Part shown: piece after piece, positions 7,018 through 24,803 of the stretch
Position numbering within the stretch: the first letter of the stretch is position 1
How the letters are laid out: every line of letters begins with the position of its first letter
Source: Desulfobacterales bacterium
Lineage (GTDB): Bacteria > Desulfobacterota > Desulfobacteria > Desulfobacterales > SG8-13
Direction of reading: 5' to 3'
NCBI GenBank assembly: GCA_051155755.1
Contig: DAXETY010000002.1
Span: forward strand, 26,860 to 90,859
DNA length: 64,000 bases
Made by a program: the position numbers and the translations under genes
Notes under the pieces: generated by a model
Database searches by the model: none
What the model was told of the DNA's origin: nothing
Seen by the model: only the letters and a program-made list of their open reading frames with translations

Positions 7018-8011
7018 TTTCGGCGTCCAGCGTTGCGATAATTTTCGAAAGCAGCCGGTCGATTCCATGACCGGTTTTGGCGGATATCTCCAGAACATCT
7101 TCTTCCGACATGGCGCGGCGCATCGCCGCCGCAGCGGCTTCGGCTCCGGGAAGATCCATCTTGTTCAGTACGATGATTTGCGGTTTGCGGGACAATTCTT
7201 CCCGGTATGCGGACAGCTCGTTGCGAATGATGCGATAAGTTTCCAGCGGATCTTCCGGGTCCAGGGAAGTGGCATCCATCAGGTGCACCAGGATCCGGGT
7301 CCGTTCGATGTGTCGCAGAAAGCGGGTACCCAGCCCGGCGCCGCGGTGGGCCCCATCAATCAGCCCCGGAATGTCCGCCACGACAAACGGTTCGCGCCAG
7401 CGGGTTTGAACAACGCCGAGATTGGGGTGGAGCGTTGTGAACGGATAGTCGGCAACCTTGGGGCGGGCGGCGGAAATGGTTCGGATCAGGGTCGATTTGC
7501 CGGCATTGGGCAGTCCCACCAGGCCAACATCGGCAATCAATTTCAATTCCAGTTTCAGTTTTCTGAATTCACCGGGTTGTCCGGGGCGCACCGTCCGCGG
7601 AGCCTGATTGGTGGCGGTCTTGAAGCGGGCGTTGCCGGCACCGCCGCGACCGCCGCGGGCCGCAACCCAGTTGTCGCCGTCGCCGATCAGGTCGGCCAGC
7701 AACCGCCCGGTTTCTTCATCGTGAATCAGTGTTCCCGGGGGAACTTCGATGGTGCAATCTTCACCGTTTCGACCGGTTTTCTGTTTTCCCTGGCCGGGTT
7801 TGCCGCTGGATGCCTTGAAATGCTGTCTGAAATGAAAATCGTAAAGCGTGCGCTTGCGGGATGTCGCTCTGAGCATGACATCGCCGCCCTTGCCGCCGTC
7901 TCCGCCATCGGGACCACCGCGCGGCACGTACTTCTCGCGCCGAAAACTCATACAGCCGTTGCCGCCGTCTCCGGCTTGAACGGTAATCGTCGCTTCATCG
8001 ACAAATTTCAC
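6989..8011 (-). CDS. obgE: GTPase Obg/CgtA
   Basis: Gly-rich Obg fold ([18 protein letters not shown]). G1 [10 protein letters not shown]3 DIPGLI, G4 NKMD. Confidence 0.95.
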
Positions 8012-8262
8012 TCGGCATGCACGCTCACTCGTTTGCGGCTGCGGCCCTGGCGCTCATATGACACAACACCGTCGATCTTGGCGAACAGGGTGTAGTCTTT
8101 TCCCAGCCCGACATTCAGGCCGGGGTGAATCTTGGTGCCGACCTGACGCACGAGGATGTTGCCGGCTTTGACCTTTTGGCCGCCGAAAATTTTGATGCCT
8201 CGCCGCTGACCGGCACTGTCGCGACCGTTTTTAGAACTTCCGGCTGCTTTTTTGTGGGCCAT
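8008..8262 (-). CDS. rpmA: 50S ribosomal protein L27
   Basis: [16 protein letters not shown]...[14 protein letters not shown] at 8262 with GGAGAA upstream. Confidence 0.95.
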
Positions 8263-8402
8263 GATCGTTCTCCATTTGCCTCTCAAGCTCCCACAAGCGG
8301 AGAGCCTGGATAAAAACCAACCCGTTTTCCGACGGTACGGGACCCCGGCGGTTGGAAAGGTGGGGGGCTTCGGTTCAATAAATCGGGGGCCGCCCGGCGG
8401 TG

Positions 8403-8714
8403 TCAGGCGTTTATGCCGGTAATCCGCACGGCCGTGTAATATTGTCGGTGCCCCTGCTTGCGGCGGAAACGCTTGCGGCGCTTGTACTTGAACACGAGCA
8501 CCTTTTTGGCGCGGTCCTGTTCGACGATGCGTCCGTCGACCGCCGCATTTTCCACCACCGGTTGGCCGATGGTGACATTGTCGCCATCGGAAATCATCAA
8601 TACCCGGTCAAATGAAACCGATTCACCGATCTCACCGGGTATTTTTTCGATGCGAACCACATCGCCTTCTTCCACTCTGTATTGTTTGCCGCCTGTGGCA
8701 ACTACCGCATACAT
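8403..8714 (-). CDS. rplU: 50S ribosomal protein L21
   Basis: [19 protein letters not shown]-terminus. 103 aa. Confidence 0.95.
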
Positions 8715-11666: not shown

Positions 11667-12052
11667 TTGGTCTCCTTCGGGTTATCGATGTGACAATCCC
11701 AGCAGTACGGTCTTACGGATGCATAGTCGTGACATCGGTCGCAGAACTCGGCCTTGTTGGAGTGGCAGTCCAGACAGGTGTTGGAAAGACTCATGTTGTA
11801 CTCTTTCCCGTCCGGGCTGACGTAAATCCGCTCGGCGTTGCGCACCACCGCATGCCGCCAGACATCCAGGAGCTGCATGTGGTTGGCCTGCATGTACTCG
11901 GTGGATCTAACGCACACCTTGGCTCGCTTGGCCTGTTCGGTCAGCACCACTTCCGGTGCCGGTGCGGCTTTGCCCCGGTTGTACCAGAACGGCAACGTCA
12001 CGATGACCAGAAAAATCGCGATTCCCAGATACAGAAGTTTTTTGTTACTCAT
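11663..12052 (-). CDS. dsrJ: DsrJ, triheme cytochrome c
   Basis: N-terminal TM/signal segment and three CxxCH motifs (CLDCH, CDRCH, CWDCH). 129 aa. Confidence 0.85.
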   Translation of the reverse strand: MSNKKLLYLGIAIFLVIVTLPFWYNRGKAAPAPEVVLTEQAKRAKVCVRSTEYMQANHMQLLDVWRHAVVRNAERIYVSPDGKEYNMSLSNTCLDCHSNKAEFCDRCHDYASVRPYCWDCHIDNPKETK

Positions 12053-13697
12053 CGGATTCGTCCTCCGTTTCCGGCGCGGTCCCCTGCAACTCTTCGAACT
12101 CCTCGCTGCGCAGGTTCATGGCCCGCTCGCCCTGCCCCGGCAGGTTCAGCGCGTTGGCCACCATTTCATGCACGCCGGTGACATCCACGTCACCGACCCA
12201 GTAATCCATCAGGTCCGGCAGCACGGCCCGGTCGATGGCACAGATGGTCGCCAGCATGTTCACCCCATGCTTGTCTTTGACGTACTTGACGGCGTTGGCT
12301 CGGGGCAGGCCGCCAGCCATGCGCAACTCCATGTCCTCGCCGGCATTCAGGCCGGATCCGCTGCCGCAACAGAAGGTCTGCTCCCGGATGGTATTGGCGG
12401 GCATGTCGTAAAAATTGCGGCACACGCTGTTGATCACGTAACGGGGTTCATCGAAAAGCCCCATTCCCCGGGCAGGATTGCAGGAGTCGTGAAAGGTGAC
12501 CTTCAGGTGGTCGTTGCGGCTCGGGTCCAGATCCAGTTTGCCATGCTTGATCAGGTCGGCGGTAAATTCGGTAATGTGCACCATTTTGGTGGACCGGGCG
12601 TTTTCGAACTTCGTGCCGGTAATCGGGTTGACCGGTACTTCGAGAAAATCCGCCGGGCCGTTCATGGTGTCCATGTACTGGTTGATCACCCGCCACATGT
12701 GACCGCACTCGCCGCCCAGGATCCATTTTACCCCCAGCCGCTTGGCCTCGGCGTACATCTTGGCGTTGAGCCGTTTCATGGTTTCGTGCGAGGTGAAAAA
12801 CCCGAAGTTGCCGCCTTCCGAGGCGTAGGTGCTCCAGGTGATGTCGAAACCGTATTTTTCTTTCAGGAAATGAAACAGGATCATGTAGCCCATGCAAGTG
12901 TAGGTACCCGGGTCGGCGAACACGTCTCCGGAGGGCGTAATAAAAAGGATGTCGGCGCCCTTCTTGTTGAACTCGGGGGTGACCCGCACACCGGTGACCT
13001 CCTCGATGTCGTCGACGAAAAAGTCGAGCATGTCCTTGTAAGCATGGGGCTGGATGCCGAGGTGGTTGCCGGTGCGGTAGCAGTTGGCCACCGGGGTGGC
13101 GATCCAGTCGATGTTGAGGCCCAGCAGGTTCAACAGCTCGCGGCCCATGATGGTGATCTCGGCGGTATCGATCCCGTAGGGGCAGTACAGCGAACAGCGC
13201 CGGCACTCGGAGCACTGGAACATATACGACCACCACTCCTTGAGCACGTTTTCGGTCATCGGACGCGATCCGTTCAGTTTGCCCAGGATGCGGCCGGCCC
13301 TGGAAAAATCATTGCGGTAAACCGAGCGCAGCAGCTCGGCCCGCAGCACCGGCATGTTCTTGGGGTCGCCGGTGCCGATGAAGTAATGGCACTTGTCGGC
13401 ACAGGCCCCGCAGCGCACGCAGATGTCCATGAAGATTTTAAAGGTTCGAAATTTTTCCAGCCGCTCCCGGAAGCCTTCGTGGATGATCTGCTGCCAGTTG
13501 TCGGGCAGCTGCCAGTCGTCGTCGAAGCAGCTCCACTGACGGGGGTTGGGCATACTCAGGTATTCCAGGCTCTTCGGGTTGGCCGCATAGCAGGCAATGC
13601 CCTTGCGGATCTCGGCTGGCACGTCCATCCAGTCTTTCGATGGAGGACTGTGTTCGATGTTTGTGAGATAATCGGTTGCAGTGGGAAGATCGGACAT
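12045..13697 (-). CDS. dsrK: DsrK, HdrD-like iron-sulfur subunit
   Basis: CVRCGACADKC and CSECRRCSLYCP ferredoxin motifs, plus CCG-domain signatures (FCCGSGSG). Confidence 0.9.
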   Translation of the reverse strand: MSDLPTATDYLTNIEHSPPSKDWMDVPAEIRKGIACYAANPKSLEYLSMPNPRQWSCFDDDWQLPDNWQQIIHEGFRERLEKFRTFKIFMDICVRCGACADKCHYFIGTGDPKNMPVLRAELLRSVYRNDFSRAGRILGKLNGSRPMTENVLKEWWSYMFQCSECRRCSLYCPYGIDTAEITIMGRELLNLLGLNIDWIATPVANCYRTGNHLGIQPHAYKDMLDFFVDDIEEVTGVRVTPEFNKKGADILFITPSGDVFADPGTYTCMGYMILFHFLKEKYGFDITWSTYASEGGNFGFFTSHETMKRLNAKMYAEAKRLGVKWILGGECGHMWRVINQYMDTMNGPADFLEVPVNPITGTKFENARSTKMVHITEFTADLIKHGKLDLDPSRNDHLKVTFHDSCNPARGMGLFDEPRYVINSVCRNFYDMPANTIREQTFCCGSGSGLNAGEDMELRMAGGLPRANAVKYVKDKHGVNMLATICAIDRAVLPDLMDYWVGDVDVTGVHEMVANALNLPGQGERAMNLRSEEFEELQGTAPETEDESDE

Positions 13698-13700
13698 TGA

Positions 13701-14786
13701 TTACTCCTTTTCCTCTGGTTCGGCTTCAGATTCTTCTTCACCTTCTTCCGGTGCGGCTTCCGGCATTTTTTCCACCGGCAGTCCGGCCTCCACCATCTTT
13801 TCTCTAAATTCATCCTCGTATTCGGCGTAGGTGTGCACCTCGACGGGATAGTTCCAAGGATTGACGTGCCGGCGGGCGCGCGTGTCGGCGGTGAGATTGC
13901 GGGTCGGGCTCATGAACACACCGCCCAGGTGCATCAATTTGCTGAAGGGAAAATAGGCCAGCAGGATGCTGACGAAAAACAGGTGAACGAAAAAGATCGC
14001 ACTCACATTGGCGGGCATCACGGGCCGAAAGGTCACCAAACCCATGCTCAGTTCTTTGGCGGCGGTCACGTCGATCTTGATGAAATACCGCATCAGAATT
14101 CCGGTAAAGGCGATTCCGAAGATCAGGATCAGGGGGAAATAGTCCGAAGCCAGAGAGATGTATTTCACGTTGGGGCCGAAAATCCGGCGCAGAAACAAAA
14201 AGGTGACGGCCGCCAACAGCACCAGCCCGGAGAGATAGACCCCGGGCAGCCCGATCATCACCGATTCATACAGGACTTCGAGGCGAAAAAAACTGTCGAC
14301 GTTTTCCACCAGCTGCACCGGCAGTGGCACCGGCTCGGTGAAAAAACGCAGGTGCCGAAACAGCACCGTGAAAAAAGCGTAGTGAAAGGCCAGGGCAAAC
14401 ACCCACAGGAAAAGCTCCAGCTTGTAGGAAATCCGGCCCTCCCGGAGCTTCATGCGCGTATTGCGAAAAAGCGAGCGAAACGCCACCACTTCCAGCAGCA
14501 TCCGCATGAAGACCCCACCCTTGGAGAAGGGATTGTCCCACTTGTTGGCCTTGATCCAGGGAAGCGACTGCTGTTGGCCGCCCGTGGTGGGGATGCGATA
14601 CGGCACCGGCACTTTCGACCACTGCAGGATTTTATAAACAAATCCCACAACGAAAGTAATCAGGGCCGCATAGGGGATGATCACCCCGAACAGCCATTTG
14701 AGCCCCGGAGCCGCTTCCACCCCCGCAAAGGCCAGCAGAAATAATACAATGACCGCGATGAGGGAAAACATGTACCTTCTGTTCAT
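13701..14786 (-). CDS. dsrM: DsrM, NarI-like membrane cytochrome b subunit
   Basis: Polytopic membrane protein. ATG at 14786 has GAGGAG 6 nt upstream. Acidic C-terminal tail. Confidence 0.85.
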   Translation of the reverse strand: MNRRYMFSLIAVIVLFLLAFAGVEAAPGLKWLFGVIIPYAALITFVVGFVYKILQWSKVPVPYRIPTTGGQQQSLPWIKANKWDNPFSKGGVFMRMLLEVVAFRSLFRNTRMKLREGRISYKLELFLWVFALAFHYAFFTVLFRHLRFFTEPVPLPVQLVENVDSFFRLEVLYESVMIGLPGVYLSGLVLLAAVTFLFLRRIFGPNVKYISLASDYFPLILIFGIAFTGILMRYFIKIDVTAAKELSMGLVTFRPVMPANVSAIFFVHLFFVSILLAYFPFSKLMHLGGVFMSPTRNLTADTRARRHVNPWNYPVEVHTYAEYEDEFREKMVEAGLPVEKMPEAAPEEGEEESEAEPEEKE

Positions 14787-14888
14787 TGAAACGCTCCTCG
14801 TCTCCAGTTTGCGCATCGGCGGGACCCGTTAATGCGCGTGAAATAGGTTGAACCGTTGCGGTATAAGAAAAAAACGGCATTCTTCGCA

Positions 14889-15416
14889 TCAGGGTTCCGA
14901 TTCGTCCTCGGGCGCCTCCTCAATCAGACCCGCTCGCTGGAACGCCCGGCGGATTCCCTTTCTTTCGAAATTGGTTTTCAGATCGTAGAGTTTCTCACGA
15001 CATTCCATGTAGATATCGAAGGCAAACAGACTCATCGAATCAACGCGGTCTTCAAATTGCCGCAGCTCCAGCGCCGTCTGTGAATCGCGCAGTTCGCGTC
15101 TCAGATGGGAGCGAACCACGGGCTTCAAGGCGAGCACGAAAGCGGTGGCCTGAGAGGGGGAGAATTTCTGCACGGCTCGAATCCGGACGATCGGATCGAG
15201 GTGGGTGCGGACAGCTTCTTTTTCGGGACCCCCGACCAGCTGGTCGTAGAGTCCATTCAAGCCGCTGTGCAGGGCGCCGCCGACGGGGTTGCTGAATGGA
15301 TCCAGATTGCCCTTGAGGAATTTGGCGGTGTCGGGGGCATAGGTGTTTACCACCATGTCAAGCCAGTCTTTGACGATGGCGCGCTTTTTCTTTGCCAGCA
15401 GCGCTTCAATCCCCAT
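14889..15416 (-). CDS. RsbRD N-terminal-domain-like protein
   Basis: MGIEALLAKKKRAIVKDWLDMVVNTYAPDTAKFL resembles RsbRD_N family starts as I recall them. The start is ambiguous (15416, 15473 or 15488). Confidence 0.55.
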   Translation of the reverse strand: MGIEALLAKKKRAIVKDWLDMVVNTYAPDTAKFLKGNLDPFSNPVGGALHSGLNGLYDQLVGGPEKEAVRTHLDPIVRIRAVQKFSPSQATAFVLALKPVVRSHLRRELRDSQTALELRQFEDRVDSMSLFAFDIYMECREKLYDLKTNFERKGIRRAFQRAGLIEEAPEDESEP

Positions 15417-15888
15417 GGGTTTTCGAGTTTCTGCCACCGTGGTCCATCGTTTGTGAGAGTGGTCTGAATTCATACGGATTTCAAACATATCCCGACTTCA
15501 CCAAGGTGAAGGCTATAAACGACTTGCCTTTTCCTGTCAAGGATAATCGACAGCCGAAACCCCGGGTTCAGAGGGGGTGACGACCGCCGGCTTGAATTGT
15601 TTTTTATCATATTTTCAATATCTTAAAAAACACATAGCCGCCGGCTACGATGCCGGCAACGCGCCGGCACCCGCGAGGTCTGCCGGTGCATTTTTGCTTG
15701 GTATTCCAGCCGGAAAACGTTACAATAAACATACAATGTATGGTCAAATAGCGGCGGATCCGGCTGGGGTTCCGCCGCTCGCACGACGGCCCTTTGTCGT
15801 TGCACGCGGTGTTGCAAATGCAACCTCGTAAACCCGATCCCGACACCGGACGTCTGAACCGACAGCACCGACTTGCAGGAGAATATCG

Positions 15889-16503
15889 ATGGCCATCGCT
15901 CGAAAAATCGCCGCAGGTGCATTGATTTTCTGGGCACTTGTGCTGTGTGCCTGCAGTTCCGCACCGCAGGTGGATCGCCGCAATGTATCCGAAACCATCG
16001 ACCTCAGCGGTCGATGGAACGATGCCGATTCCCGCATGGTCTCCGAGACGATGATCGCCGATTGTCTGGACCGGCCATGGCTGGAAGTCCACCGCGATGC
16101 CAGCGCCGGACGCGCGCCCACGATCATTGTCGGCCGGGTGCGCAATCGCAGCCACGAACACATCAATGTTCAGACGTTTATCAAAGACCTGGAACGGGCG
16201 ATGATCAATTCCGGGCAGGTGCAATTTGTAGCCTCGGCCGAAGAACGGATCGGTATCCGGGACGAACGCATCGACATGGCCGCCAATGCTTCGGAAGAAA
16301 CCATGAAGGGCCCGGGCCGCGAGATCGGTGCCGACTACATGTTGATCGGCTCCATCCAGAGCATTCGGGATGAGATTCCGGGCAAGGCCCTGATGTATTA
16401 CCAGGTGAACCTGGAGTTGATCGACTTGGAATCCAATCGAAAAGTCTGGATCGGTCAAAAAGAGATCAAAAAACTGATCGAAAGGCCCGAAGTTCGTTGG
16501 TAG
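15889..16503 (+). CDS. LpoB-like (COG3417) outer-membrane lipoprotein
   Basis: AGGAGA RBS. Lipobox LCAC. The domain pattern RWNDAD...IIVGRVRNRS...GADYMLIGSI...LELIDLESNRKVW parallels E. coli LpoB. Confidence 0.7.
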   Translation: MAIARKIAAGALIFWALVLCACSSAPQVDRRNVSETIDLSGRWNDADSRMVSETMIADCLDRPWLEVHRDASAGRAPTIIVGRVRNRSHEHINVQTFIKDLERAMINSGQVQFVASAEERIGIRDERIDMAANASEETMKGPGREIGADYMLIGSIQSIRDEIPGKALMYYQVNLELIDLESNRKVWIGQKEIKKLIERPEVRW

Positions 16504-16553
16504 GCGGGCGATCTGCCACCGAAACGGCCGTGCGAACGACGGGGAATGAAACT

Positions 16554-17912
16554 TTGCCGCAGCCGCTGAATGCCACCGCCCGATTGTTGCCGGCCATGTT
16601 GCTGGGGGTCGTCTTGACACTGTTGTTGAGTGCCTGTGGCTCCCGGCTCGATCATTACGTCCGCCTCGATCGCCAGATGTACAGGGGGGATTTCGATTCG
16701 GCCCTGTCGACGCTGCGGGACAACCAAACCCATTACGCCTCCGGCGACGCCGCGCTGTATTACATGGAAGAAGGCCTGCTGTCCCATTATGCCGGGCGCT
16801 ACGAAGAGAGCAGTTGGAGCCTGTTGCAGGCCGAAGCGATGCTGGACGATCTTTACACGCGCTCGGTGTCCCGCCAGACCGCCTCGTTTTGGATCAACGA
16901 TACCACGGTGCCTTACCGGGGCGAAAATTTCGAAGACGCCCTGGTGAACCTTTTCCTGGCGATGAATTACGCCAGCCTGGGCCTGCATGACGATGCCCTG
17001 GTGGAAGCCCGGCGGGTGGACAGCGAACTGGCGCAGTTCCAGTATCCGCAGACAGCCGAGCCGCAGGACGCATTCGTTCGTTTCATCATGGGCGTGCTCT
17101 ACGAAGCCGACGGCGAACTCAACGATGCGTTCATCGCGTTTCGCAATTCGGAACGAATCTACCGCACGAAATACCTGCCTTCCTACGGGATCGCAACGCC
17201 GGCGGTGCTGCTGGAAAAGCTGCTCTGTGCGGCGACACAGCTCGGATTCCAGTCCGAAATGGACCAAATCCTGCAGTACTATCCCGGTTTCCGGCCGCGT
17301 GTGGCGGCGGCACCGTTGCGATCGGCGGAAATTTTCCTGCTGCACTACAACGGCCCGGGGCCCGAAAAAGTCGAAACCTTTTGGACGGTGCCCATGCCGG
17401 ACGGATACGTCGCCAAAATTGCGTATCCGCAGTTTCGGGTTCGGGATTACGCCATCGACCGCAGTCGGGTGCGGATTCGGGATCGTGAAAGCGGGCGGCG
17501 ATACGATTTCGAAACCGAGCCGATGGAGCCGGTCGGCGCGATCGCGGCGGCGAACCTGGAACACCGGATCGAACAAACCAAGAGCAAGGCCGTGGCCCGC
17601 GCCACCGTCAAATATCTGACCACCAAAGCCGCCGCTGAAGCCGTCGGCCGAGAAGCCGGCGATTCCGCCGGCGCCCTGATCCAGCTCTTCGGCAATCTGC
17701 TGGGTCTGGTCACCGAAAACGCCGATATTCGGCATTGGCGGCTGCTGCCGGACGAAATTCGCCTGGGCCGCGTGCAGGTGCCCGCCGGAGGTTACGAGGG
17801 CGAAATCGCATTCGTCGATGCCCACGGCACCACGGTGCTGTCGGAAACGATGCCGCCGTTTCAGGTCGCCGCGGGTGAGAAAAAATTCATTCTGAGGCGA
17901 ACGCTGCAATGA
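16554..17912 (+). CDS. COG3014-like TPR-containing lipoprotein
   Basis: TTG at 16554 (alternative ATG at 16596). Signal peptide with lipobox LLSAC. N-terminal TPR-like helices and a long C-terminal domain. Family assigned from memory only. Confidence 0.55.
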   Translation: MPQPLNATARLLPAMLLGVVLTLLLSACGSRLDHYVRLDRQMYRGDFDSALSTLRDNQTHYASGDAALYYMEEGLLSHYAGRYEESSWSLLQAEAMLDDLYTRSVSRQTASFWINDTTVPYRGENFEDALVNLFLAMNYASLGLHDDALVEARRVDSELAQFQYPQTAEPQDAFVRFIMGVLYEADGELNDAFIAFRNSERIYRTKYLPSYGIATPAVLLEKLLCAATQLGFQSEMDQILQYYPGFRPRVAAAPLRSAEIFLLHYNGPGPEKVETFWTVPMPDGYVAKIAYPQFRVRDYAIDRSRVRIRDRESGRRYDFETEPMEPVGAIAAANLEHRIEQTKSKAVARATVKYLTTKAAAEAVGREAGDSAGALIQLFGNLLGLVTENADIRHWRLLPDEIRLGRVQVPAGGYEGEIAFVDAHGTTVLSETMPPFQVAAGEKKFILRRTLQ

Positions 17913-19123
17913 GACGAACCCAAAAACGGCTTCTTCGGCAACCGGTTGTCGCTGCCGTCATGGTCGGCGTTTGCCTGCTTTGCGGCTGTGCGGCGTCGCA
18001 GACGGAATCGGCCGCCCCGGACGGTGTTCGGCACCGCGCCCGGCAGGCCTTCTCTGACCCGCCGGCGAAGACGGCCGCCGCCGGGGATTCCGTCGGGCAG
18101 CCGCCCCTGTTTTCGGAGCCTGCCGGTGCGCCGGCCGCCGCGGTCACCACCCGGGGGGGAGCGCTTCCCGACTGGATCCGGGACGCTTCGGATGAATTTC
18201 CGCCCCGACGCTATCTGACCGCACTCGGTCGGGGAGCCGATCGCCTGGAAGCCGAGGACCGGGCCCGGGCCGATATCGCCCGCTTTTTCCACACGGAGAT
18301 CGAATCCAACCGCCAAACCCGCGAGTCGATTCGGCAACGGTCCGTGGCGCAGGGGGTGGAAACCGATCACCGCATCCGCTCGGTGGAGCAGCTGCGGATT
18401 TCAAGCCGCAAAATGCTGTCGGGCGTATGGATTGCAAGGGTGCATCAAAACACGGCTTCACCGGAGAGAGAATTTTACGTGCTGGCGGCCCTGGACCGCC
18501 GTCAGGCCGCCGCCGCGGCAGCAGCGAACATCCGGAGCCTGGATGCCGCCATCCAAAAGTCGCTGGAGGCCCTCGAGGGGCAGGACCGATGGAACCGGAT
18601 TCGAATGCTGCAGACCTGTCTCGAGCACCATGACCGCCGATCGTTGTATGCGGCTGAATTGCGGGTGCTGCAACCGGAAACCGGCGGCATCGATCCGGCC
18701 GTGTCGCGGAACGATCTGGAAAACCGGCTGGCCCGCTTGCTGCGGGAGGATTTACTTGTGGCCGTGGCCGTCACCGGAGCCGGTTCGGAGCGCGTCGGCC
18801 GGTCACTGGTCGATGCATTGACGCAAAAAGGCTTTTCGGTCACCGAACGCGTATCCCAGGCACAGTTGCTCGCCCGGGGGGCGGTTGACATCGAAGTCGA
18901 TACCGCCATCGAATCCACCTGGAAGTTTGTCCGCTGGCGGGTTCACTTCGACCTGATGGACGCCCGCGAAGAGACGATTTTCGCCAGCATCGGCCGGTCC
19001 GGACGGGAAGGTCACCTGACGGTCCCCAAGGCGGAGCAGCGCGCTCTGCGGGAAATCGAAGCGGCCCTGACAGGTGAAATCGCCGTTCGGCTGGACGATT
19101 TTATCCGGGGGAAAAAACCATGA
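17909..19123 (+). CDS. LPP20-domain lipoprotein with an extra C-terminal alpha/beta domain
   Basis: ATGA overlap with the upstream stop. Lipobox LLCGC. LPDWIRD...DRARADIARFF matches the LPP20 pattern (PDW ... A..AR). Confidence 0.6.
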   Translation: MRRTQKRLLRQPVVAAVMVGVCLLCGCAASQTESAAPDGVRHRARQAFSDPPAKTAAAGDSVGQPPLFSEPAGAPAAAVTTRGGALPDWIRDASDEFPPRRYLTALGRGADRLEAEDRARADIARFFHTEIESNRQTRESIRQRSVAQGVETDHRIRSVEQLRISSRKMLSGVWIARVHQNTASPEREFYVLAALDRRQAAAAAAANIRSLDAAIQKSLEALEGQDRWNRIRMLQTCLEHHDRRSLYAAELRVLQPETGGIDPAVSRNDLENRLARLLREDLLVAVAVTGAGSERVGRSLVDALTQKGFSVTERVSQAQLLARGAVDIEVDTAIESTWKFVRWRVHFDLMDAREETIFASIGRSGREGHLTVPKAEQRALREIEAALTGEIAVRLDDFIRGKKP

Positions 19124-20298
19124 GAAAACGCCACCTTCGAAATGCATGGCAGCCAACGGCTTCCAAATCGATTGCCGTGCCGGTGCCGGAGATTCCGGGA
19201 AAGACCATCATCGTGAACCTGTTTCGAACCGCCGTTCGAGCGGCCGTTCGGACGGCCGCCCTGGCGGTCGGCTTGACGGTGGCTTCGGCCTGGGCGGCCA
19301 CCCCCGGGGATATTTATCATCGGGCCGGGCCGGCCGTGGTTTTTATTCTGGCATCGGAAACACTGAAGACCGGCAACATCGGCACCGGTTCGATCATTCG
19401 CGCCGACGGTCTGATTCTCACCAACGCCCACCTTTTTCGGAAAGGCAACCGGGAGAGCCTTGTCCCAGACATTCATGTATATCTGAAACCACAACGGGTC
19501 ACCGGCGATCACCGCCGCGATCTTTCGAAAGGCTACAGGGCCCGACTGCTGGTCGCCGACCCGTCCCTGGACCTTGCGCTGCTGCAGATCCAGGTCCCGG
19601 ACGTCCAATTGTCGACCCTGGCAATCGCGGACTCGGAGCAGGTGGGCATCGGTGACCCGGTGTATGCCATCGGGCATCCGGAGCAGGGGGGATTGTGGAG
19701 CCTGACGGCCGGGGTGGTCAGTGCGGTGCGCCGGGACTTCGGCGGTATTGACGGCAAAAATCTTTTCCAAACCGATGCCAGCATCAACCGCGGCAATTCC
19801 GGGGGGCCGCTGCTAGACAAACATGGCCGCATGGTCGGCATCAACGCCATGATCGCACGAAAAGCCGCTGATGGAATGACTATCACGGACGTCAACTATG
19901 CGATCATGTCCAATGTCGCCCTGAATTGGCTGCGCGGGCAGGGGGTTTTTATCGCCGCGGCCGGTGCGTCAAGCGGTGCAGTCGAACCTTCGGCTTCGGA
20001 GGGCGTTGCGGTTTTGGAACCATCGCCGGAGGCCGTTTTGCCGCAGCCGGAGCCGGGACAGGACCCACCGGTCGACGACAGCGAACCTGAATCAAGGCCC
20101 GTCGCGCCGGAAAGCGGAACGGCGCTGCCACCGCCGGAAGCAGCTCCGCCTTCGAAGCCAGCCGAAGAATACGAACCGGAAAAACGAATTCTGACCCGCA
20201 AGCATCCCTACCGGATGCCGCGTTTGATCGAAGATATGCGCGAGATGGAAGGTTTCATGGAGGAAATGCGCCGAAAAGTGCGAACCCATCGAAATTGA
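19120..20298 (+). CDS. secreted trypsin-like (S1C-type) serine protease with a Pro/Glu-rich C-terminal region
   Basis: ATGA overlap with the upstream gene. Signal peptide ending ASAWA. Triad contexts TNAHL, DLALLQI and GNSGGPLLD. No PDZ domain is evident. Confidence 0.8.
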   Translation: MRKRHLRNAWQPTASKSIAVPVPEIPGKTIIVNLFRTAVRAAVRTAALAVGLTVASAWAATPGDIYHRAGPAVVFILASETLKTGNIGTGSIIRADGLILTNAHLFRKGNRESLVPDIHVYLKPQRVTGDHRRDLSKGYRARLLVADPSLDLALLQIQVPDVQLSTLAIADSEQVGIGDPVYAIGHPEQGGLWSLTAGVVSAVRRDFGGIDGKNLFQTDASINRGNSGGPLLDKHGRMVGINAMIARKAADGMTITDVNYAIMSNVALNWLRGQGVFIAAAGASSGAVEPSASEGVAVLEPSPEAVLPQPEPGQDPPVDDSEPESRPVAPESGTALPPPEAAPPSKPAEEYEPEKRILTRKHPYRMPRLIEDMREMEGFMEEMRRKVRTHRN

Positions 20299-20335
20299 AA
20301 TGACCATCAGTTCCATCGGAAAAGGAGGTTTTCCA

Positions 20336-20917
20336 ATGACAAATTCCCAAAAACCAAGTTGGCTTCTCGTCATGCTGCTGGCAGCCGTTGCACTGGCGGC
20401 GGCCGGCTGTGCCTCGAGCCCGGAACCAAGTGCCGATTCGGCCGCTTTAGGACCGCAGTGGGTCATGCAGGGCAGCGGTGCCTTCGATCAGGACGGTGAG
20501 CGGGTGTTTTACGGGGTCGGTGTAGCTTCCGGCATTCACAACAAGGCGCTGCTGCGCCAGTCGGCCGACGACCGGGCCCGACTGGAAATCGCCAAAACCC
20601 TGGAAGTATATGTGTCGGGGTTGAGCAAGGACTACATGGCCTCTACGACTGCAGGCGACATGTCCCGGTCCTCGGAAGAGCAACACGTGGAAACCGCCCT
20701 GAAAACCTTTACCAAAACCACGCTGCACGGCGCCACCATCACCGATCGCTGGGTGGACCCGGCCGACGGGTCGATGTATGCGTTGTGCGAGCTCGACCTG
20801 CTCTCGCTCAAAGAAGCCCTGAACGACTACCGTGAACTCGATTCCCAGCTGCGCGACTATGTGCGGGAAAATGCCGACCGGATGCACGAGGAACTCAACC
20901 GGATGGAAAACCGCTGA
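20336..20917 (+). CDS. LPP20 family lipoprotein
   Basis: AAAGGAGG RBS. Lipobox AAAGC. GPQWVMQGSGAF...DDRARLEIAKTL matches the H. pylori Lpp20-type pattern. Confidence 0.7.
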   Translation: MTNSQKPSWLLVMLLAAVALAAAGCASSPEPSADSAALGPQWVMQGSGAFDQDGERVFYGVGVASGIHNKALLRQSADDRARLEIAKTLEVYVSGLSKDYMASTTAGDMSRSSEEQHVETALKTFTKTTLHGATITDRWVDPADGSMYALCELDLLSLKEALNDYRELDSQLRDYVRENADRMHEELNRMENR

Positions 20918-21013: not shown

Positions 21014-21697
21014 CTATCGGCTTTTCAGAAACCGTTTGCCTTTTTTCCAGGTCTGCTTGATCCATCCGGCCGCGGACTCCACCATGGTGCGCCGGTAAAA
21101 ATCCTGCTCGACGGCACTGAGCGCCCCCACCCGGCGGAGCTTGAGCTTGACCCAGGCGTTGTAGTCGAAACGCTGAAACAACCGGAAGCGATAGTGATTC
21201 AGCGGTGCGAGTCGATCCTTGCGCACCGCGGCCACCCCGAAGTCGATCAACCAGGGCTCCCGACCGTTCACCACCAGGATATTGTCTTTCTTTTTCAGGT
21301 CTCCGTGGGCGATGCCACGGTGATGCATCCTGCGAATTCGTTCCAACAGGGTGCCAAAGAAGTAATCGGGGTCGGATATTTCCGCGCTGCGCAGCGGAAT
21401 GCCCTCGATGCACTCGAGCACCAGATAGCGCCGGCCCAGAAAGCCATAGCAAACCGGAATTCCCGCCATGCCCTCAAGCCGGCGGTAGACCCGGTATTCG
21501 TTGTACAGCATCCAGCGGGAAACCCATGCGGTCAGACCGATTCCAAGCGGGGCCTTGACGGCCAGGGGCCGACCATCGAAACACAGGCGGTAGGTGTGGC
21601 CCTGGTAACCGTGACCGAGAATGTTGTCCCGGTCGGCGAGACAGGCTTCGATCCGTTCCAGCAAGACGCGCTCGGACCCGGGCGGTGGATTCGGCAT
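21014..21697 (-). CDS. protein-kinase-like fold protein (Kdo/WaaP/RIO-like)
   Basis: Catalytic-loop-like HGDLKKKDNILV followed by IDFG. 227 aa with no other domains. Confidence 0.6.
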   Translation of the reverse strand: MPNPPPGSERVLLERIEACLADRDNILGHGYQGHTYRLCFDGRPLAVKAPLGIGLTAWVSRWMLYNEYRVYRRLEGMAGIPVCYGFLGRRYLVLECIEGIPLRSAEISDPDYFFGTLLERIRRMHHRGIAHGDLKKKDNILVVNGREPWLIDFGVAAVRKDRLAPLNHYRFRLFQRFDYNAWVKLKLRRVGALSAVEQDFYRRTMVESAAGWIKQTWKKGKRFLKSR

Positions 21698-21713
21698 GCA
21701 GGCTCCCGGGATG

Positions 21714-22277
21714 TCAGCGTTTCCAATGAAGATAGTACAGGCAGGCGAGCAAAATCAGGGCGATGACGGGCTCTCCGTTCTGACGCAGGCTCTGACGAAA
21801 AGACCATCCGCCGACGGGACTGGAAAATCCCCGCAGGCGGGGAATCAGGGCCAGCGTGCGCTGGCTCCAGCGTTCCCAGTCTTCTCCGAAAAGACGGTGC
21901 AGTTTGTTGTCCTCCCGGCGGATGGCCGGAGGATAGAACAACAGCAGGATCAGAACAAAAGCCGGCAGACTCCACCACAAACCGGACGCCAGGCAGAAAC
22001 CCGCCCCCAGCAGGATATTGCCGACATACAACGGGTGGCGCACGTAGGCATAGGGGCCATCGGTGGCCAGCTCCTTGTTTTTTTTAATGTGACCGGAAGC
22101 CCACAGGCGCACCGCGATTCCGAGCCCCACCAGAAATACGCCGGGCCAGAACCAGCCGGGCCGGGGCTGACCGGCGGCCGTGACCAGAAAGACAAACAAG
22201 ATCCCGACAAATTGCCGGTATCGATCCCGGCGGTATCGCACATCGTGGGAAAACCGCTTCCATCCGATTTCTTTCAC
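21714..22277 (-). CDS. isoprenylcysteine carboxyl methyltransferase (ICMT/PEMT) family membrane protein
   Basis: Multiple TM segments and the motif GPYAYVRHPLYVGN. Confidence 0.75.
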   Translation of the reverse strand: MKEIGWKRFSHDVRYRRDRYRQFVGILFVFLVTAAGQPRPGWFWPGVFLVGLGIAVRLWASGHIKKNKELATDGPYAYVRHPLYVGNILLGAGFCLASGLWWSLPAFVLILLLFYPPAIRREDNKLHRLFGEDWERWSQRTLALIPRLRGFSSPVGGWSFRQSLRQNGEPVIALILLACLYYLHWKR

Positions 22278-22506
22278 CGCAAATATTCCTTTGTGTCCGA
22301 GTCGTCTGTTTGCCGCAAAACCGATGGGCGACCGGCGAATTTTACTCCGAAAAAGCTGCGGCAGTGCCGAGGGGGCGCCAGGGAATCTGCCGGGGCCAAC
22401 CGATTTGCAGGTACTTGGAAAAAATGTAGTTTGAAGGAAATGAACAGGAAAGTCAAGAATATCCTGTACTTCTCGGCCTTAAATATTTCAGTTACCCCCT
22501 GCAGGC

Positions 22507-22541
22507 AATAAAAAGGCTGACCGCTTTTGGAGCGGTCAGCC
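22507..22541 (-). terminator. rho-independent terminator (minus strand)
   Basis: 11-bp perfect stem GGCTGACCGCT/AGCGGTCAGCC with a 5-nt loop, followed on the minus strand by TTTTTATT. Confidence 0.6.
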
Positions 22542-22558
22542 TGAAAGGAGGAATACAG

Positions 22559-22618
22559 ATGAAGAATTTCGTGGCTTCGATCTGGATAATAAGCAACGAA
22601 TGTGCCAAAAGTGGCTGA
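22559..22618 (+). CDS. candidate 19-aa small ORF (MKNFVASIWIISNECAKSG)
   Basis: Consensus SD AAAGGAGG with a 6-nt spacer (AATACA) before the ATG. Too short for compositional support. Confidence 0.3.
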   Translation: MKNFVASIWIISNECAKSG

Positions 22619-22716
22619 AAATTCAAAAACGGCGCTAACCAGTTAGATTTCAATCAAAACGCGCGGTCCCGCCCCCGGTGGAGATGCTTTCATTCGAGTC
22701 GATCTTCCCCAGAAAT

Positions 22717-22732
22717 GTTCAAAATTTTGAAC
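22717..22732. promoter_or_regulatory. perfect 16-bp palindrome GTTCAAAATTTTGAAC
   Basis: Read directly. The half-sites GTTCAA/TTGAAC are the same as in the terminator stem at 22796..22811. Confidence 0.3.
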
Positions 22733-22791
22733 CAAATTTCAGCGAATTCACGACAACATTCTTATATAATTCATCATACTTAAAATTTGCC

Positions 22792-22822
22792 GGGCGTTCA
22801 AGATCTTGAACGCCCTTTTTTT
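22792..22822 (+). terminator. rho-independent terminator (strong on plus strand, weak on minus)
   Basis: Perfect palindrome GGGCGTTCAAGATCTTGAACGCCC followed by T7. Confidence 0.7.
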
Positions 22823-22929
22823 CGCAAACGGGCCACGATCATAACCAATCGGTATCACTTCGAATCGAATCGTTTACAGAAATGAACGCGTTGTCCGGCC
22901 GGCGGAATCGGACCGATCCGATGGCGGGT

Positions 22930-23943
22930 TTACAGCCCGACACCATCGATGGGGCTGCGGCAATAACGACAGCGGCCGTCTTCCAGATCATAGCTGCGAA
23001 TGGAAAACCCCCAGCGTTCGATGACCACGCGCCTGCATTCCGGACAATAGGTGTGCTCGCCGTCTTCCCCCGGAACATTGCCGGTGTACACATACCGCAG
23101 GCCGGCTTCGAGCCCGATATCCCGGGCCATCAACAGCGTTTTTACCGGTGTGGGCGGTCGGTCGGTGAGTTTGTAAGTCGGATGAAAGCGACTGATGTGC
23201 CAGGGGGTTTCCACTCCGAGTTCCCGTACCAGAAAGTCGGCCAGATCTCTGAGTTCTTCGGTATCGTCGTTCAATCCCGGAACGATCAAAGTGGTTACCT
23301 CGACAAAAATGCCTGCATTTTTCAGGTTCTTAAGACATTCGGTTACGTGCTTCAACCGGGCCTTGCACTGCTTGCGGTAGTAATCATCGCGGAATGCCTT
23401 CAAATCGACATTGGCGGCATCCAGAACGTCGCGAATCATCGCGACGGCTTCGCCGGTCATGTATCCATTTGTAACGAAAACGTTTTTAAGGCCCCGCTCC
23501 CGGGCAATGCGGGCGGTGTCGTGCGCCAGTTCGAAAAAGATGGTCGGCTCTGTATAGGTGTAGGCAATGCTCCGGCACTTGCCCTGGACGGCCGCCTGCA
23601 CCAATTCTGCGGGAGTGGTGCGTTCTCCGAGGATCATGCCGTCGCGATCCCCCGGCATCTGGGCAATGTCTGCATTTTGACAGAACCGGCAGCGGAAATT
23701 GCAACCCACCGTTGCCACCGAATACGAAAGGCTGCCGGGGAAAAAGTGAAACAGGGGTTTTTTTTCGATCGGATCGATGTGGTGGGCGATGATTTTGTCG
23801 TATACCAGCGTGTTCAGCACGCCTTCGCGGTTTTCCCGCACCCCGCATATTCCCCGTTTTCCGGTTTTGATGTGGCAGCGGTGGCTGCAGAGGTTGCAGC
23901 GAACGGACTGTTCCTCGGCCGGTTCCCACAGATAGGCTTCCAT
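22930..23943 (-). CDS. AmmeMemoRadiSam-system-type radical SAM enzyme
   Basis: ATG at 23943 (MEAYLWEPAEE). N-terminal CNLCSHRCHI, radical SAM CNFRCRFCQN, and C-terminal CPECRR...CRYC. Confidence 0.8.
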   Translation of the reverse strand: MEAYLWEPAEEQSVRCNLCSHRCHIKTGKRGICGVRENREGVLNTLVYDKIIAHHIDPIEKKPLFHFFPGSLSYSVATVGCNFRCRFCQNADIAQMPGDRDGMILGERTTPAELVQAAVQGKCRSIAYTYTEPTIFFELAHDTARIARERGLKNVFVTNGYMTGEAVAMIRDVLDAANVDLKAFRDDYYRKQCKARLKHVTECLKNLKNAGIFVEVTTLIVPGLNDDTEELRDLADFLVRELGVETPWHISRFHPTYKLTDRPPTPVKTLLMARDIGLEAGLRYVYTGNVPGEDGEHTYCPECRRVVIERWGFSIRSYDLEDGRCRYCRSPIDGVGL

Positions 23944-24047
23944 GAAAGCTCCAATCGTTGAAAAGTTGTCGGCACCGGCATTCCGATTCCGGGGAAACAC
24001 CGGATGTCGATGGCCGATTCGCGAACCGGATTTGAGCGGTTGCCGGT

Positions 24048-24803
24048 TCACGAAGTGTTGGGAGCCACAATTCCGGAGGTCTTCTTGGCGCGATAGCGCA
24101 GGGCCAGCGGGCGGGTACGAAACCGCGGCATCAGCGTCGCGACCACGCCCAGAAATGCACCGAAGGGACAGCGCTGAAGAATCGGCGAATATTCGAGGTT
24201 CTGGGCCAATCCGCTGCAGGCCGTGGGAAACTGATTGATGGTCCGCCAGGCAATCGGCACCGGTCCCGCTACCGACAACACCATGCGCTTGAGTTCCCAA
24301 ACTCCAAAAAACTGGGCTTTATTAAAGATGGATTCGGAAAACATTCCGGCAACCCTGCGATGGATGCTTTTGATGGCGTAGCGGTTCAATACGCCGATAA
24401 AGACGCGGTCCTTGGCGACGCGACAGGCTTCGGCAATGCTCTGCCGGGGGTCGTCGACGAATTCCAGGGTCGTCATCAAAACGGCATGATTAAATGAGTT
24501 GTCGTCGAAGGGAAGATCTTCGGCATGGGAGCGGTACAAGTCGACACGTGGGCCGAATCGCTGAAAACAGCAATCGAGCATGTAAGGAGACGGATCGAGA
24601 CCGGTGGGGCTGACGCCGCGTTCCAACAGGGCCTCGAAATGAATACCGGTGCCGCAGCCGATATCGAGAACGGTTTCACCCCGCGCCGGCTGGAGCATTT
24701 CGATCATCAGATGGCACTCGCGTTCGGCTTCCGACCGGCGTTCCGGCTCGCGGTGCCAGCGCTCATACATCATCGCATCTTTGAAATCGAACACGTAGCC
24801 CAT
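24048..24803 (-). CDS. class I SAM-dependent methyltransferase
   Basis: Motif I VLDIGCGTG and an acidic loop. About 250 aa. Confidence 0.8.
   Translation of the reverse strand: MGYVFDFKDAMMYERWHREPERRSEAERECHLMIEMLQPARGETVLDIGCGTGIHFEALLERGVSPTGLDPSPYMLDCCFQRFGPRVDLYRSHAEDLPFDDNSFNHAVLMTTLEFVDDPRQSIAEACRVAKDRVFIGVLNRYAIKSIHRRVAGMFSESIFNKAQFFGVWELKRMVLSVAGPVPIAWRTINQFPTACSGLAQNLEYSPILQRCPFGAFLGVVATLMPRFRTRPLALRYRAKKTSGIVAPNTS

Follow-up and report, generated by a model that had tools for sequence, protein, structure and literature searches.

What might four lipoproteins and a secreted serine protease do together when their genes follow one another without a break? The question is raised by positions 15889-20917 of a 64,000-nucleotide stretch of contig DAXETY010000002.1, from a Desulfobacterales bacterium (assembly GCA_051155755.1); we refer to the whole stretch as the window. 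The five genes, designated g1 to g5, encode in order an LpoB-family lipoprotein, a COG3014-family lipoprotein, a large LPP20-domain lipoprotein, a secreted S1C serine protease, and a small LPP20-family lipoprotein. The g1-g2 core is a known, functionally uncharacterized lipoprotein pair, and the LPP20 additions have counterparts in Helicobacter. In the literature that we searched, we found no description of a five-gene version in which an intact HtrA-type protease with a C-terminal tail is embedded. Drawing on sequence, structural models, and analogy, we tentatively infer an outer-membrane-anchored periplasmic complex, in which an LpoB-like/TPR core, an LPP20-fold scaffold, and a docked protease would serve envelope maintenance. 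We regard this reading as possible, somewhat short of probable.

Organization of the locus

As predicted from sequence, the five genes are one operon, read entirely from the + strand. Gene g1 occupies 15889-16503 (204 amino acids, aa), g2 16554-17912 (452 aa from the TTG start called by NCBI), g3 17909-19123 (404 aa), g4 19120-20298 (392 aa), and g5 20336-20917 (193 aa, which is also the form annotated by NCBI; the frame is open from 20300). ATGA overlaps join g2 to g3 (17909-17912) and g3 to g4 (19120-19123), and spacers of 50 and 37 nucleotides separate g1 from g2 and g4 from g5, respectively. An alternative in-frame TTG at 16497 would give g2 a 7-nucleotide overlap with g1. An AAGGAGG ribosome-binding site (20322-20328) lies ahead of the g5 ATG at 20336. 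Lipoboxes are found in g1 (LCAC), g2 (LSAC), g3 (LCGC), and g5 (AAGC), with Cys codons starting at 15952, 16635, 17987, and 20408, and g4 has a Sec-type signal that ends in AWA, ahead of ATP, near 19282-19302. No convincing terminator was seen within the operon, and a convergent gene on the minus strand (21014-21697) bounds the cluster 3' of g5.

A sequence-only reading of the window had described this layout, including its junctions, lipoboxes, and Sec signal, and the + strand open reading frames (ORFs) confirm it. The family labels that it gave are upheld as well, by hidden Markov model (HMM) assignment for g1 (LpoB), g3 and g5 (LPP20, at the family level), and g4 (Trypsin_2), and by the NCBI name for g2. 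The exact sequences of all five proteins are found under the consecutive NCBI accessions HHP7233043-47, from a Desulfobacterales metagenome-assembled genome (MAG), where they are named LpoB, COG3014 family protein, hypothetical, S1C family serine protease, and hypothetical.

Conservation and gene order

A COG3014 profile scan of one genome per GTDB species yielded 80 loci, or 81 with the window, and HMMs of all five proteins were run on the six-frame ORFs of the 80. Gene g1 lies directly 5' of g2 in 79 of these and in the window (80/81), across at least seven named lineages. The other genes are less constant: about 50 loci have g3 directly 3' of g2, about 37 contain g5, and 19 of 81 contain g4. 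Thirteen of the 19 protease-bearing loci have the order g1-g2-g3-g4-g5 (the Desulfobacterales type), a count that includes the window, truncated variants, and variants with extra LPP20 genes. The other six, from Nitrospirota, carry g4 upstream of g1, five of them as g5-g4-g1-g2-g3 and one cut at a contig end. All five genes are therefore kept despite rearrangement in two phyla, which argues for functional linkage. In Syntrophobacterales, Omnitrophota, and Ignavibacteria/Bacteroidota MAGs, g1-g2 often stand alone and are followed by unrelated genes. Clustering of the neighbours at the 81 loci revealed no conserved gene beyond the five.

The five genes had been proposed to form a single module. 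Their co-occurrence and gene order, far beyond chance across phyla, bear this out, but the module is not a fixed unit: the neighbourhood conservation holds for the core pair, the LPP20 genes are frequent additions, and the protease belongs to a minority of loci.

A reverse census, seeded with the protease and run on metagenome contigs, recovered 32 loci whose g4-like genes reach about 200 bits or higher on the g4 HMM, 29 of them at 297 bits or above. Module genes adjoin the g4-like gene in 12 of the 32, and g5 is adjacent in 10 of those 12. One locus (L103), and probably two more (L093 and L110), shows a g5-g4 pair without g1-g2 within the contig flank of about 8 kb. At least nine g4-like genes with adequate flanks sit among unrelated genes; they represent a sister group with a related tail (RPYNLD...EMRGK). 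Judged by gene content, this operon appears to unite two sub-modules that can occur apart, one made up of g1-g2 and the other of the LPP20 genes with the protease.

Several loci depart from these arrangements. The sole locus without a g1 match (L030, 6927-9614) has a g2 ORF of 895 aa, the N-terminal 470 aa of which match the beta-propeller families SGL and Reg_prop. These matches rule out a g1 fusion; a fusion of another kind or an over-extended ORF may explain the length. At L057 (3188-7080) an entire second set of genes is found on the opposite strand. In five Nitrospirota loci (L038, L048, L049, L058, and L059, in the last at 7833-8585), a signal-peptide protein of about 250 aa is encoded just 5' of g5. 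It has no Pfam match, its sequence pattern suggests a possible outer-membrane protein, and it could be a lineage-specific sixth component.

The protease

The g4 product matches Pfam Trypsin_2 with E = 4e-31. It remains far under the cutoffs of the Do/HtrA-type NCBIfam models (132.6 vs 416.2 bits), with the protease domain alone aligned, and it likewise aligns with DegP, DegQ, and DegS over the protease domain only (about 1e-22 for the DegQ/DegP structures). No PDZ domain was found in the Pfam and NCBIfam scans. The triad motifs are located around His104 (19420-19434), Asp151 (19570-19584), and Ser227 (19792-19809). Across 17 orthologues drawn from two phyla, there is little or no variation in the catalytic triad and the tail motif. 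The protein is thus predicted to be a catalytically intact, active protease.

The C-terminal 120 residues consist of a Pro/Glu/Ala-rich disordered linker of about 85 residues and one helix. This helix, ILTRKHPYRMPRLIEDMREMEGFMEEMRRK at 20188-20295, is amphipathic and conserved, with the family motif ILTxKxPYxMxxLIxxMxEMEDMMEEMR. Every member of the g4 family has a signal peptide without a lipobox. None of 16 orthologues contains anything that corresponds to the annotated residues 1-31, which makes GTG 19213 a plausible alternative start; its use would abolish the g3/g4 overlap.

Gene g4 could encode a general periplasmic quality-control HtrA that lies by chance beside a four- or two-gene lipoprotein system. 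Such a housekeeping role would agree with the absence of the protease from 62 of the 81 loci and with the nine or more same-tailed g4-like proteases among unrelated genes. It does not readily explain why g4 is kept next to g5 in two phyla despite rearrangement, as it is in 10 of the 12 module-linked census loci, nor why the PDZ substrate-sensing domains of housekeeping HtrA proteins are missing and a conserved, leashed C-terminal helix is present instead. We consider a chance neighbour unlikely.

The LpoB-family and COG3014-family core

The g1 product matches the full 147-position Pfam LpoB model (PF13036) with E = 5e-38 and 130.7 bits, the domain being encoded at 16027-16467, but with 87.8 bits it falls under the 110.55 cutoff of the NCBIfam LpoB equivalog TIGR02722. 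Cys22 (codon 15952-15954) is invariant among 24 aligned homologues, and in all 24 a tether of about 15 residues leads from this residue to an invariant DLSGRWND (from 16000). The family has a mean column identity of 59% from Desulfobacterales to Bacteroidota and shares the further invariant motifs NRSxEHI, GADxML, and KxWxG. When the family profile is compared with the PDB, the E. coli/Salmonella LpoB structures are the top match, with only E = 0.13 over 77 residues. The Aeromonas LpoB equivalog aligns with g1 at 25% identity (E = 5e-20).

E. coli LpoB has a disordered N-terminal linker of about 55 residues that lets its globular domain cross the wall. The g1 product resembles it as an outer-membrane-type lipoprotein of the PF13036 family and differs in its short tether and in extra conserved N-terminal motifs (DLSGRWND and SEHI), the second of which is replaced by other residues in the aligned E. 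coli LpoB. Because of the sub-cutoff equivalog score, the short tether, and the E-value of 0.13 against E. coli LpoB, g1 is, as far as its sequence tells, no true LpoB.

For g2, no model was matched in Pfam or NCBIfam. Its NCBI record, identical in sequence, is named "COG3014 family protein", and a search recovered 124 homologues. The lipobox residue Cys28 (codon 16635-16637) is nearly invariant (at least 90%) in the family, and 15 of 32 family members match TPR_2. The AlphaFold2 (AF2) model has a mean predicted local distance difference test score (pLDDT) of 88.6 and features a TPR-like helical domain at residues 33-242 (16650-17279), followed by a beta-sandwich (17322-17903) that is interrupted by a long helical hairpin (17532-17714). 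The TPR half alone matches PDB entries, namely the peptide-binding TPR proteins Rap, KLC1, MamA, and PilF. The g1-g2 core is judged to be widespread in double-membraned bacteria because the COG3014 profile finds thousands of cluster representatives, 8006 at E ≤ 1e-3 and 3067 at E ≤ 1e-30, among 1.84 billion. Among envelope gene pairs that are conserved yet unexplained, g1-g2 counts as one of the more widespread.

A tblastn search of annotated replicons located the pair in better known company. In an Aeromonas caviae record, genes for a COG3014 homologue, a DUF1425/YcfL lipoprotein, and LpoB are adjacent and are followed by a ThiK-like gene; the COG3014 protein matches g2 with an hhalign E of 8e-41, and the LpoB passes the equivalog at 218.6 bits. 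The arrangement is the E. coli ycfL-lpoB-thiK neighbourhood with COG3014 retained, and the E. coli LpoB locus descends from the same ycfL-lpoB neighbourhood. The locus in the window suggests, for its part, that the LpoB of E. coli arose within an older family whose job is another one. The Aeromonas record itself (L081, NZ_AP026896.1, A. caviae pKAM479_3) is held in PLSDB as a plasmid; with 4.94 Mb, 18 annotated features, and chromosomal loci, it looks like a mislabelled chromosome. On an Azospirillum plasmid, the order is COG3014 (E = 2.4e-20 against g2), YcfL, LpoB, DUF6844, and a weakly LpoB-like protein. The last two, of 448 and 402 aa (L162, NZ_CP039640.1, 4609-7210), constitute a lineage-specific expansion of the core. 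A relation between g3 and the DUF6844 protein was considered and is not supported, as hhalign detects none.

Relatives of the core have received some study in Campylobacter and Helicobacter. The C. jejuni lipoprotein operon cj0089-cj0090-cj0091 encodes products of 453, 122, and 207 aa, with TPRs in Cj0089; in fractionation, Cj0089 is recovered with the inner membrane and Cj0091 with the outer, and a cj0091 mutant is impaired in adherence and chick colonization (PMC3100323). Like this operon, the one in the window is predicted to co-transcribe the genes of a TPR lipoprotein of some 450 aa and an LpoB-family lipoprotein of some 205 aa, and the COG3014-YcfL-LpoB triads of Aeromonas and Azospirillum likewise match the C. 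jejuni operon. In H. pylori, the homologue of Cj0089 is HP0018. Cells that lack it are less helical and form chains of outer-membrane vesicles, AmiA and MltD co-immunoprecipitate with it, and in enterohepatic Helicobacter its homologue shares an operon with the homologue of HP1457, an LpoB homologue and Cj0091 orthologue (PMC11394524). The size of g2 (452 aa) compares with 453 aa for Cj0089 and 469 aa for HP0018. The studied relatives thus give envelope phenotypes, in the HP0018 mutant and the Cj0091 colonization defect, without a mechanism. The operon described here differs from the Campylobacter, Aeromonas, and Azospirillum loci in that the LpoB-like gene comes first, YcfL/DUF1425 is absent, and LPP20 genes and a protease are added.

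NCBI labels HHP7233043.1 (g1) "penicillin-binding protein activator LpoB", and the sequence-only reading had drawn on the same role. The g1 product would then activate a class A penicillin-binding protein (PBP) through the wall, as E. coli LpoB does, and the other proteins would be accessory. The Pfam match, the NCBI name, the homology with an Aeromonas protein that passes the equivalog, and the link of HP0018 with peptidoglycan enzymes are all consistent with this. Set against them are the failed equivalog cutoff, the weak match to the LpoB structures, a tether of some 15 residues where a long linker would be needed, and the replacement of SEHI in E. coli LpoB. Moreover, the g1 family is nearly invariant across phyla, and to our knowledge the LpoB-dependent PBP1B with a UB2H domain is restricted to Gammaproteobacteria. 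A role in PBP activation is accordingly not retained for g1 and appears distinctly unlikely.

The LPP20-domain proteins

The scores of g3 and g5 on Pfam LPP20 (PF02169) lie on either side of the 25.9 gathering cutoff, at 26.2 bits for g3 and 23.0-23.2 bits for g5. At the family level both assignments are clear: LPP20 is matched at E ≤ 0.01 by all 31 members of the g3 family (best 2e-15) and all 22 of the g5 family (best 2e-8).

The structure of g3 was predicted by AF2 from a shallow alignment of eight sequences, and confidence in the model is moderate (mean pLDDT 72.5; in the folded region, residues 79-399, mostly above 80 per 10-residue block). Word-indexed homologue searches recovered only five or six proteins, even with a 31-sequence profile. 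Around and beyond the lipobox Cys27 (codon 17987-17989), the model shows a disordered leash of about 55 residues (residues 24-76; 17978-18136), an LPP20/SHS2 domain (residues 79-196; 18143-18496), a helical hairpin (18497-18670), and a C-terminal alpha/beta domain of the LptE/PelC/GNA1162 type (18755-19105). In the Desulfobacterales type, g3 is a lipoprotein with such a leash. Two homologues from Nitrospirae MAGs (L039, 3724-5241, and L056, 2202-3698) are longer at the C-terminus by about 130 aa, a stretch without a Pfam match.

Foldseek aligns the g3 model with H. pylori HP1454 (4kzs) at E = 2e-5 over 298 columns, with template modeling (TM) scores of 0.57 by target and 0.38 by query. At the sequence level identity is about 9% and the profile E-value 0.36, so the likeness is one of fold and architecture only. 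HP1454 is, like g3, a multi-domain secreted protein with an Lpp20-like first domain. Other matches are FlgT (3w1e), a Vibrio LPHT-ring chain, HpaA, GNA1162, PelC, LptE, and CsgG. The C-terminal domain matches PelC, CsgG, LptE, and GNA1162 at E of about 1e-4, and one g3 homologue matches Pfam LptE. The alignment with FlgT has a very low TM score (0.19-0.21; root-mean-square deviation 15.7).

The g5 product is shorter. From Cys25 (codon 20408-20410), a tether of about 14 residues leads to the LPP20 domain (20498-20797), which is followed by a C-terminal acidic helix (20813-20914). The lipobox is present in essentially all members, in 34 of 37 by regular expression and in the remaining three by eye, and mean column identity is 53%. 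Additional small LPP20 paralogues of about 156-173 aa are often found at related loci (L012, 5311-5781; L013, 4202-4672; L017, 8706-9227; L023, 3982-4452), and for those at L012 and L017 the LPP20 matches were checked.

The acidic helix of g5 has the pattern R-x-N-A-E-x-A-F-D-D-L-x-x-E-E. When an HMM of this helix was searched against 9079 ORFs, it found a segment just 3' of the lipobox in Desulfobacterales-type g3 (15 hits, best independent E-value 6.7e-5) and the C-termini of g4-like proteases, notably the outliers L108 and L109; just six weak matches occurred elsewhere. The shared motif hints at a common docking site, which remains a prediction from sequence patterns. A general homology of the g4 and g5 C-terminal helices was rejected, the hhalign probability being about 1%. 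In Nitrospirota, a 62-aa ORF directly 3' of g3 (L048, 6663-6851) has the acidic helix motif of the g5 tail, IKQNAEKGMQDLKREED; the match is weak (E = 0.5) and confined to this single locus.

Counterparts of both LPP20 proteins occur in H. pylori. HP1454 and HP1456 (Lpp20) are encoded in one operon and interact with FlgP and FapH by co-immunoprecipitation and two-hybrid assays, and deletion of hp1456 leaves flagella, motility, motor structure, and barrier function normal (PMC11756786). By family or fold, g1, g2, g3, and g5 would correspond to HP1457, HP0018, HP1454, and HP1456. A protease has not been reported in the H. pylori set, HP0018 is unlinked to the others, and mutant phenotypes are known for HP0018 and HP1456 only. 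Parts that are scattered in Helicobacter are thus gathered here in a single operon, together with an intact protease that has a predicted docking tail.

With these counterparts, the view that the component families were known only individually is overtaken: COG3014-YcfL-LpoB operons exist in Aeromonas and Azospirillum, and Cj0089-Cj0091, HP0018/HP1457, and HP1454/HP1456 are linked in their turn. The companion statement, that no function has been described for the five-gene combination, held up in the literature searched.

The interactions of HP1454 and HP1456 invite a flagellar interpretation. In the C. jejuni motor, rings of FlgP, which has the LPP20 fold, dock a lattice of the HtrA-derived protein PflC, with the TPR proteins PflA and PflB alongside; PflC has lost its catalytic triad and kept two PDZ domains (PMC12222027). 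The same LPP20, HtrA, and TPR families come together under the outer membrane in both systems, and the operon might encode a motor accessory resembling an H-ring or basal disk, akin to Vibrio FlgO/FlgP/FlgT or Campylobacter FlgP/PflC. The alignment of the g3 model with FlgT and the Vibrio LPHT-ring chain fits such a role, as far as its TM score allows. The genomic context speaks otherwise, as no flagellar gene family is conserved beside the module, either by neighbour clustering at the 81 loci or among hand-inspected neighbours. In addition, flagella and motor are normal after hp1456 deletion, and g4 is PDZ-less with an intact triad, the reverse of PflC. We regard a flagellar function as very improbable.

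Equally improbable is an apparatus for export or assembly at the outer membrane, of the PelC/PelB, CsgG, or LptE kind, with a polymer or lipoproteins as cargo. The matches of the g3 C-terminal domain to PelC, CsgG, LptE, and GNA1162, the LptE match of its homologue, and the resemblance of the g2 TPR domain to PilF would suit it, as would the signal-peptide protein of about 250 aa upstream in five Nitrospirota loci. That neighbour, however, is without a Pfam match, the fold class is generic among periplasmic lipoproteins, and no gene for a beta-barrel, synthase, ABC transporter, or glycosyltransferase is conserved beside the module. Finally, a preprint that lists a COG3014-domain protein among the predictors of Vibrio-phage co-sampling suggests that it may take part in phage defence, a role that we dismissed for this locus, where PADLOC returned nothing beyond generic trypsin-domain matches.

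Proposed complex and its limits

The envelope-maintenance complex that we tentatively favour can be laid out from the membrane inwards. Judging from their short tethers, g1, g2, and g5 would lie just beneath the outer membrane, and g3, on its long leash or as a soluble protein in Nitrospirota, would reach deeper towards the cell wall. By analogy with FlgP and FlgT, the LPP20-fold subunits may assemble into an oligomeric scaffold beneath the membrane. The C-terminal helix of the protease would fix it in the complex, with the TPR groove of g2 as the obvious candidate receptor, and the docked protease might mature or turn over subunits of the complex or client envelope enzymes. The module may plausibly serve to build or remodel an envelope assembly. 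Its field of action would be the upkeep of the wall/outer-membrane interface, a choice made because of the HP0018 mutant phenotypes, and its role would be neither flagellar nor one of PBP1B activation.

The association with a protease becomes less odd in light of two precedents, PflC on the FlgP disk and NlpI with Prc. In E. coli, the TPR lipoprotein NlpI partners the protease Prc, so that here too an outer-membrane TPR lipoprotein and a periplasmic serine protease act together. The analogy is functional only, as Prc belongs to family S41 and g4 to S1C, and the architecture of the TPR proteins differs. NlpI also scaffolds peptidoglycan hydrolases (PMC7049810), a parallel to the co-precipitation of AmiA and MltD with HP0018.

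A number of observations weigh against the proposed complex. The protease is missing at most loci, and its sister clade, with the same tail architecture, is found among unrelated genes; the protease may be an opportunistic addition and not an integral subunit. The acidic helix motif that would mark a docking site is degenerate in the window's own g3 (VRHRARQAFSDPP). At most Nitrospirota loci g3 has a signal peptide in which no lipobox was found, so the geometry of anchoring differs among lineages. Within the LPP20 family, ring formation goes along with a specific beta-hairpin insert, present in the oligomerizing FlgP and FlgT (PMC12222027). At the corresponding position the g3 model has extra sequence (residues 145-161), with a pLDDT below 50 and built as a helix. 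The lack of a detected phenotype for the hp1456 (Lpp20) deletion gives no encouragement either, and the case for equating g2 with Cj0089 and HP0018 is indirect, made up of the COG name, similar size, TPR content, and synteny.

The locus nevertheless yields concrete, testable partner predictions. If LPP20, HtrA, and TPR proteins do form a physical assembly here, the finding would bear on the origin of the flagellar periplasmic disks. Carried further, a non-flagellar scaffold of LPP20, HtrA, TPR, and LpoB folds could be an ancestral toolkit, from which flagellar disks (FlgP, PflC, and PflA/B) and enterobacterial LpoB were exapted, with the protease recruited via the shared acidic helix; we rate this extension as a long shot, clearly less credible than the complex itself.

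Flanking regions

The sole + strand promoter candidate in the 400-nucleotide intergenic region 5' of g1 is a sigma-70-type element at 15698-15726 (TTGGTA-17-TACAAT). It is weak, matching 9 of 12 consensus positions, and promoter-like sites in the region are no more numerous than in shuffled sequence. A regulatory RNA in this leader was sought and dismissed: an Rfam scan of the whole window gave nothing at the gathering score, tRNAs and riboswitches included. On the minus strand, a GC-rich hairpin followed by a T-run (15633-15660) resembles a terminator; it lies in the g1 upstream region, upstream of the divergent gene described below and on the strand opposite the operon.

Downstream, the minus-strand genes at 21014-24300 encode a small protein-kinase-like or Kdo-kinase-like product (ORF of 227 aa), a 187-aa membrane methyltransferase of the PEMT/ICMT type, and a 456-aa radical SAM protein; other genomes keep none of the three beside the module. 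Upstream, an RsbRD_N-domain protein of 199 aa (14889-15488, minus strand) is divergent from g1 across the intergenic region. The gene is also found 5' of the operon in L002, L003, L006, and L029, and could be a regulator or a mere syntenic neighbour. Beyond it, an adjacent minus-strand pair (12045-14816), divergent from the operon, encodes a DsrK/HmeD-like Fe-S protein with CCG domains (550 aa) and a NarI/DsrM-like membrane cytochrome b (371 aa). Such pairs are typical of sulfate-reducer electron-transfer complexes, and the synteny of this DsrMK-type pair with the lipoprotein operon is retained in the closest relatives, L002, L006, and L029.

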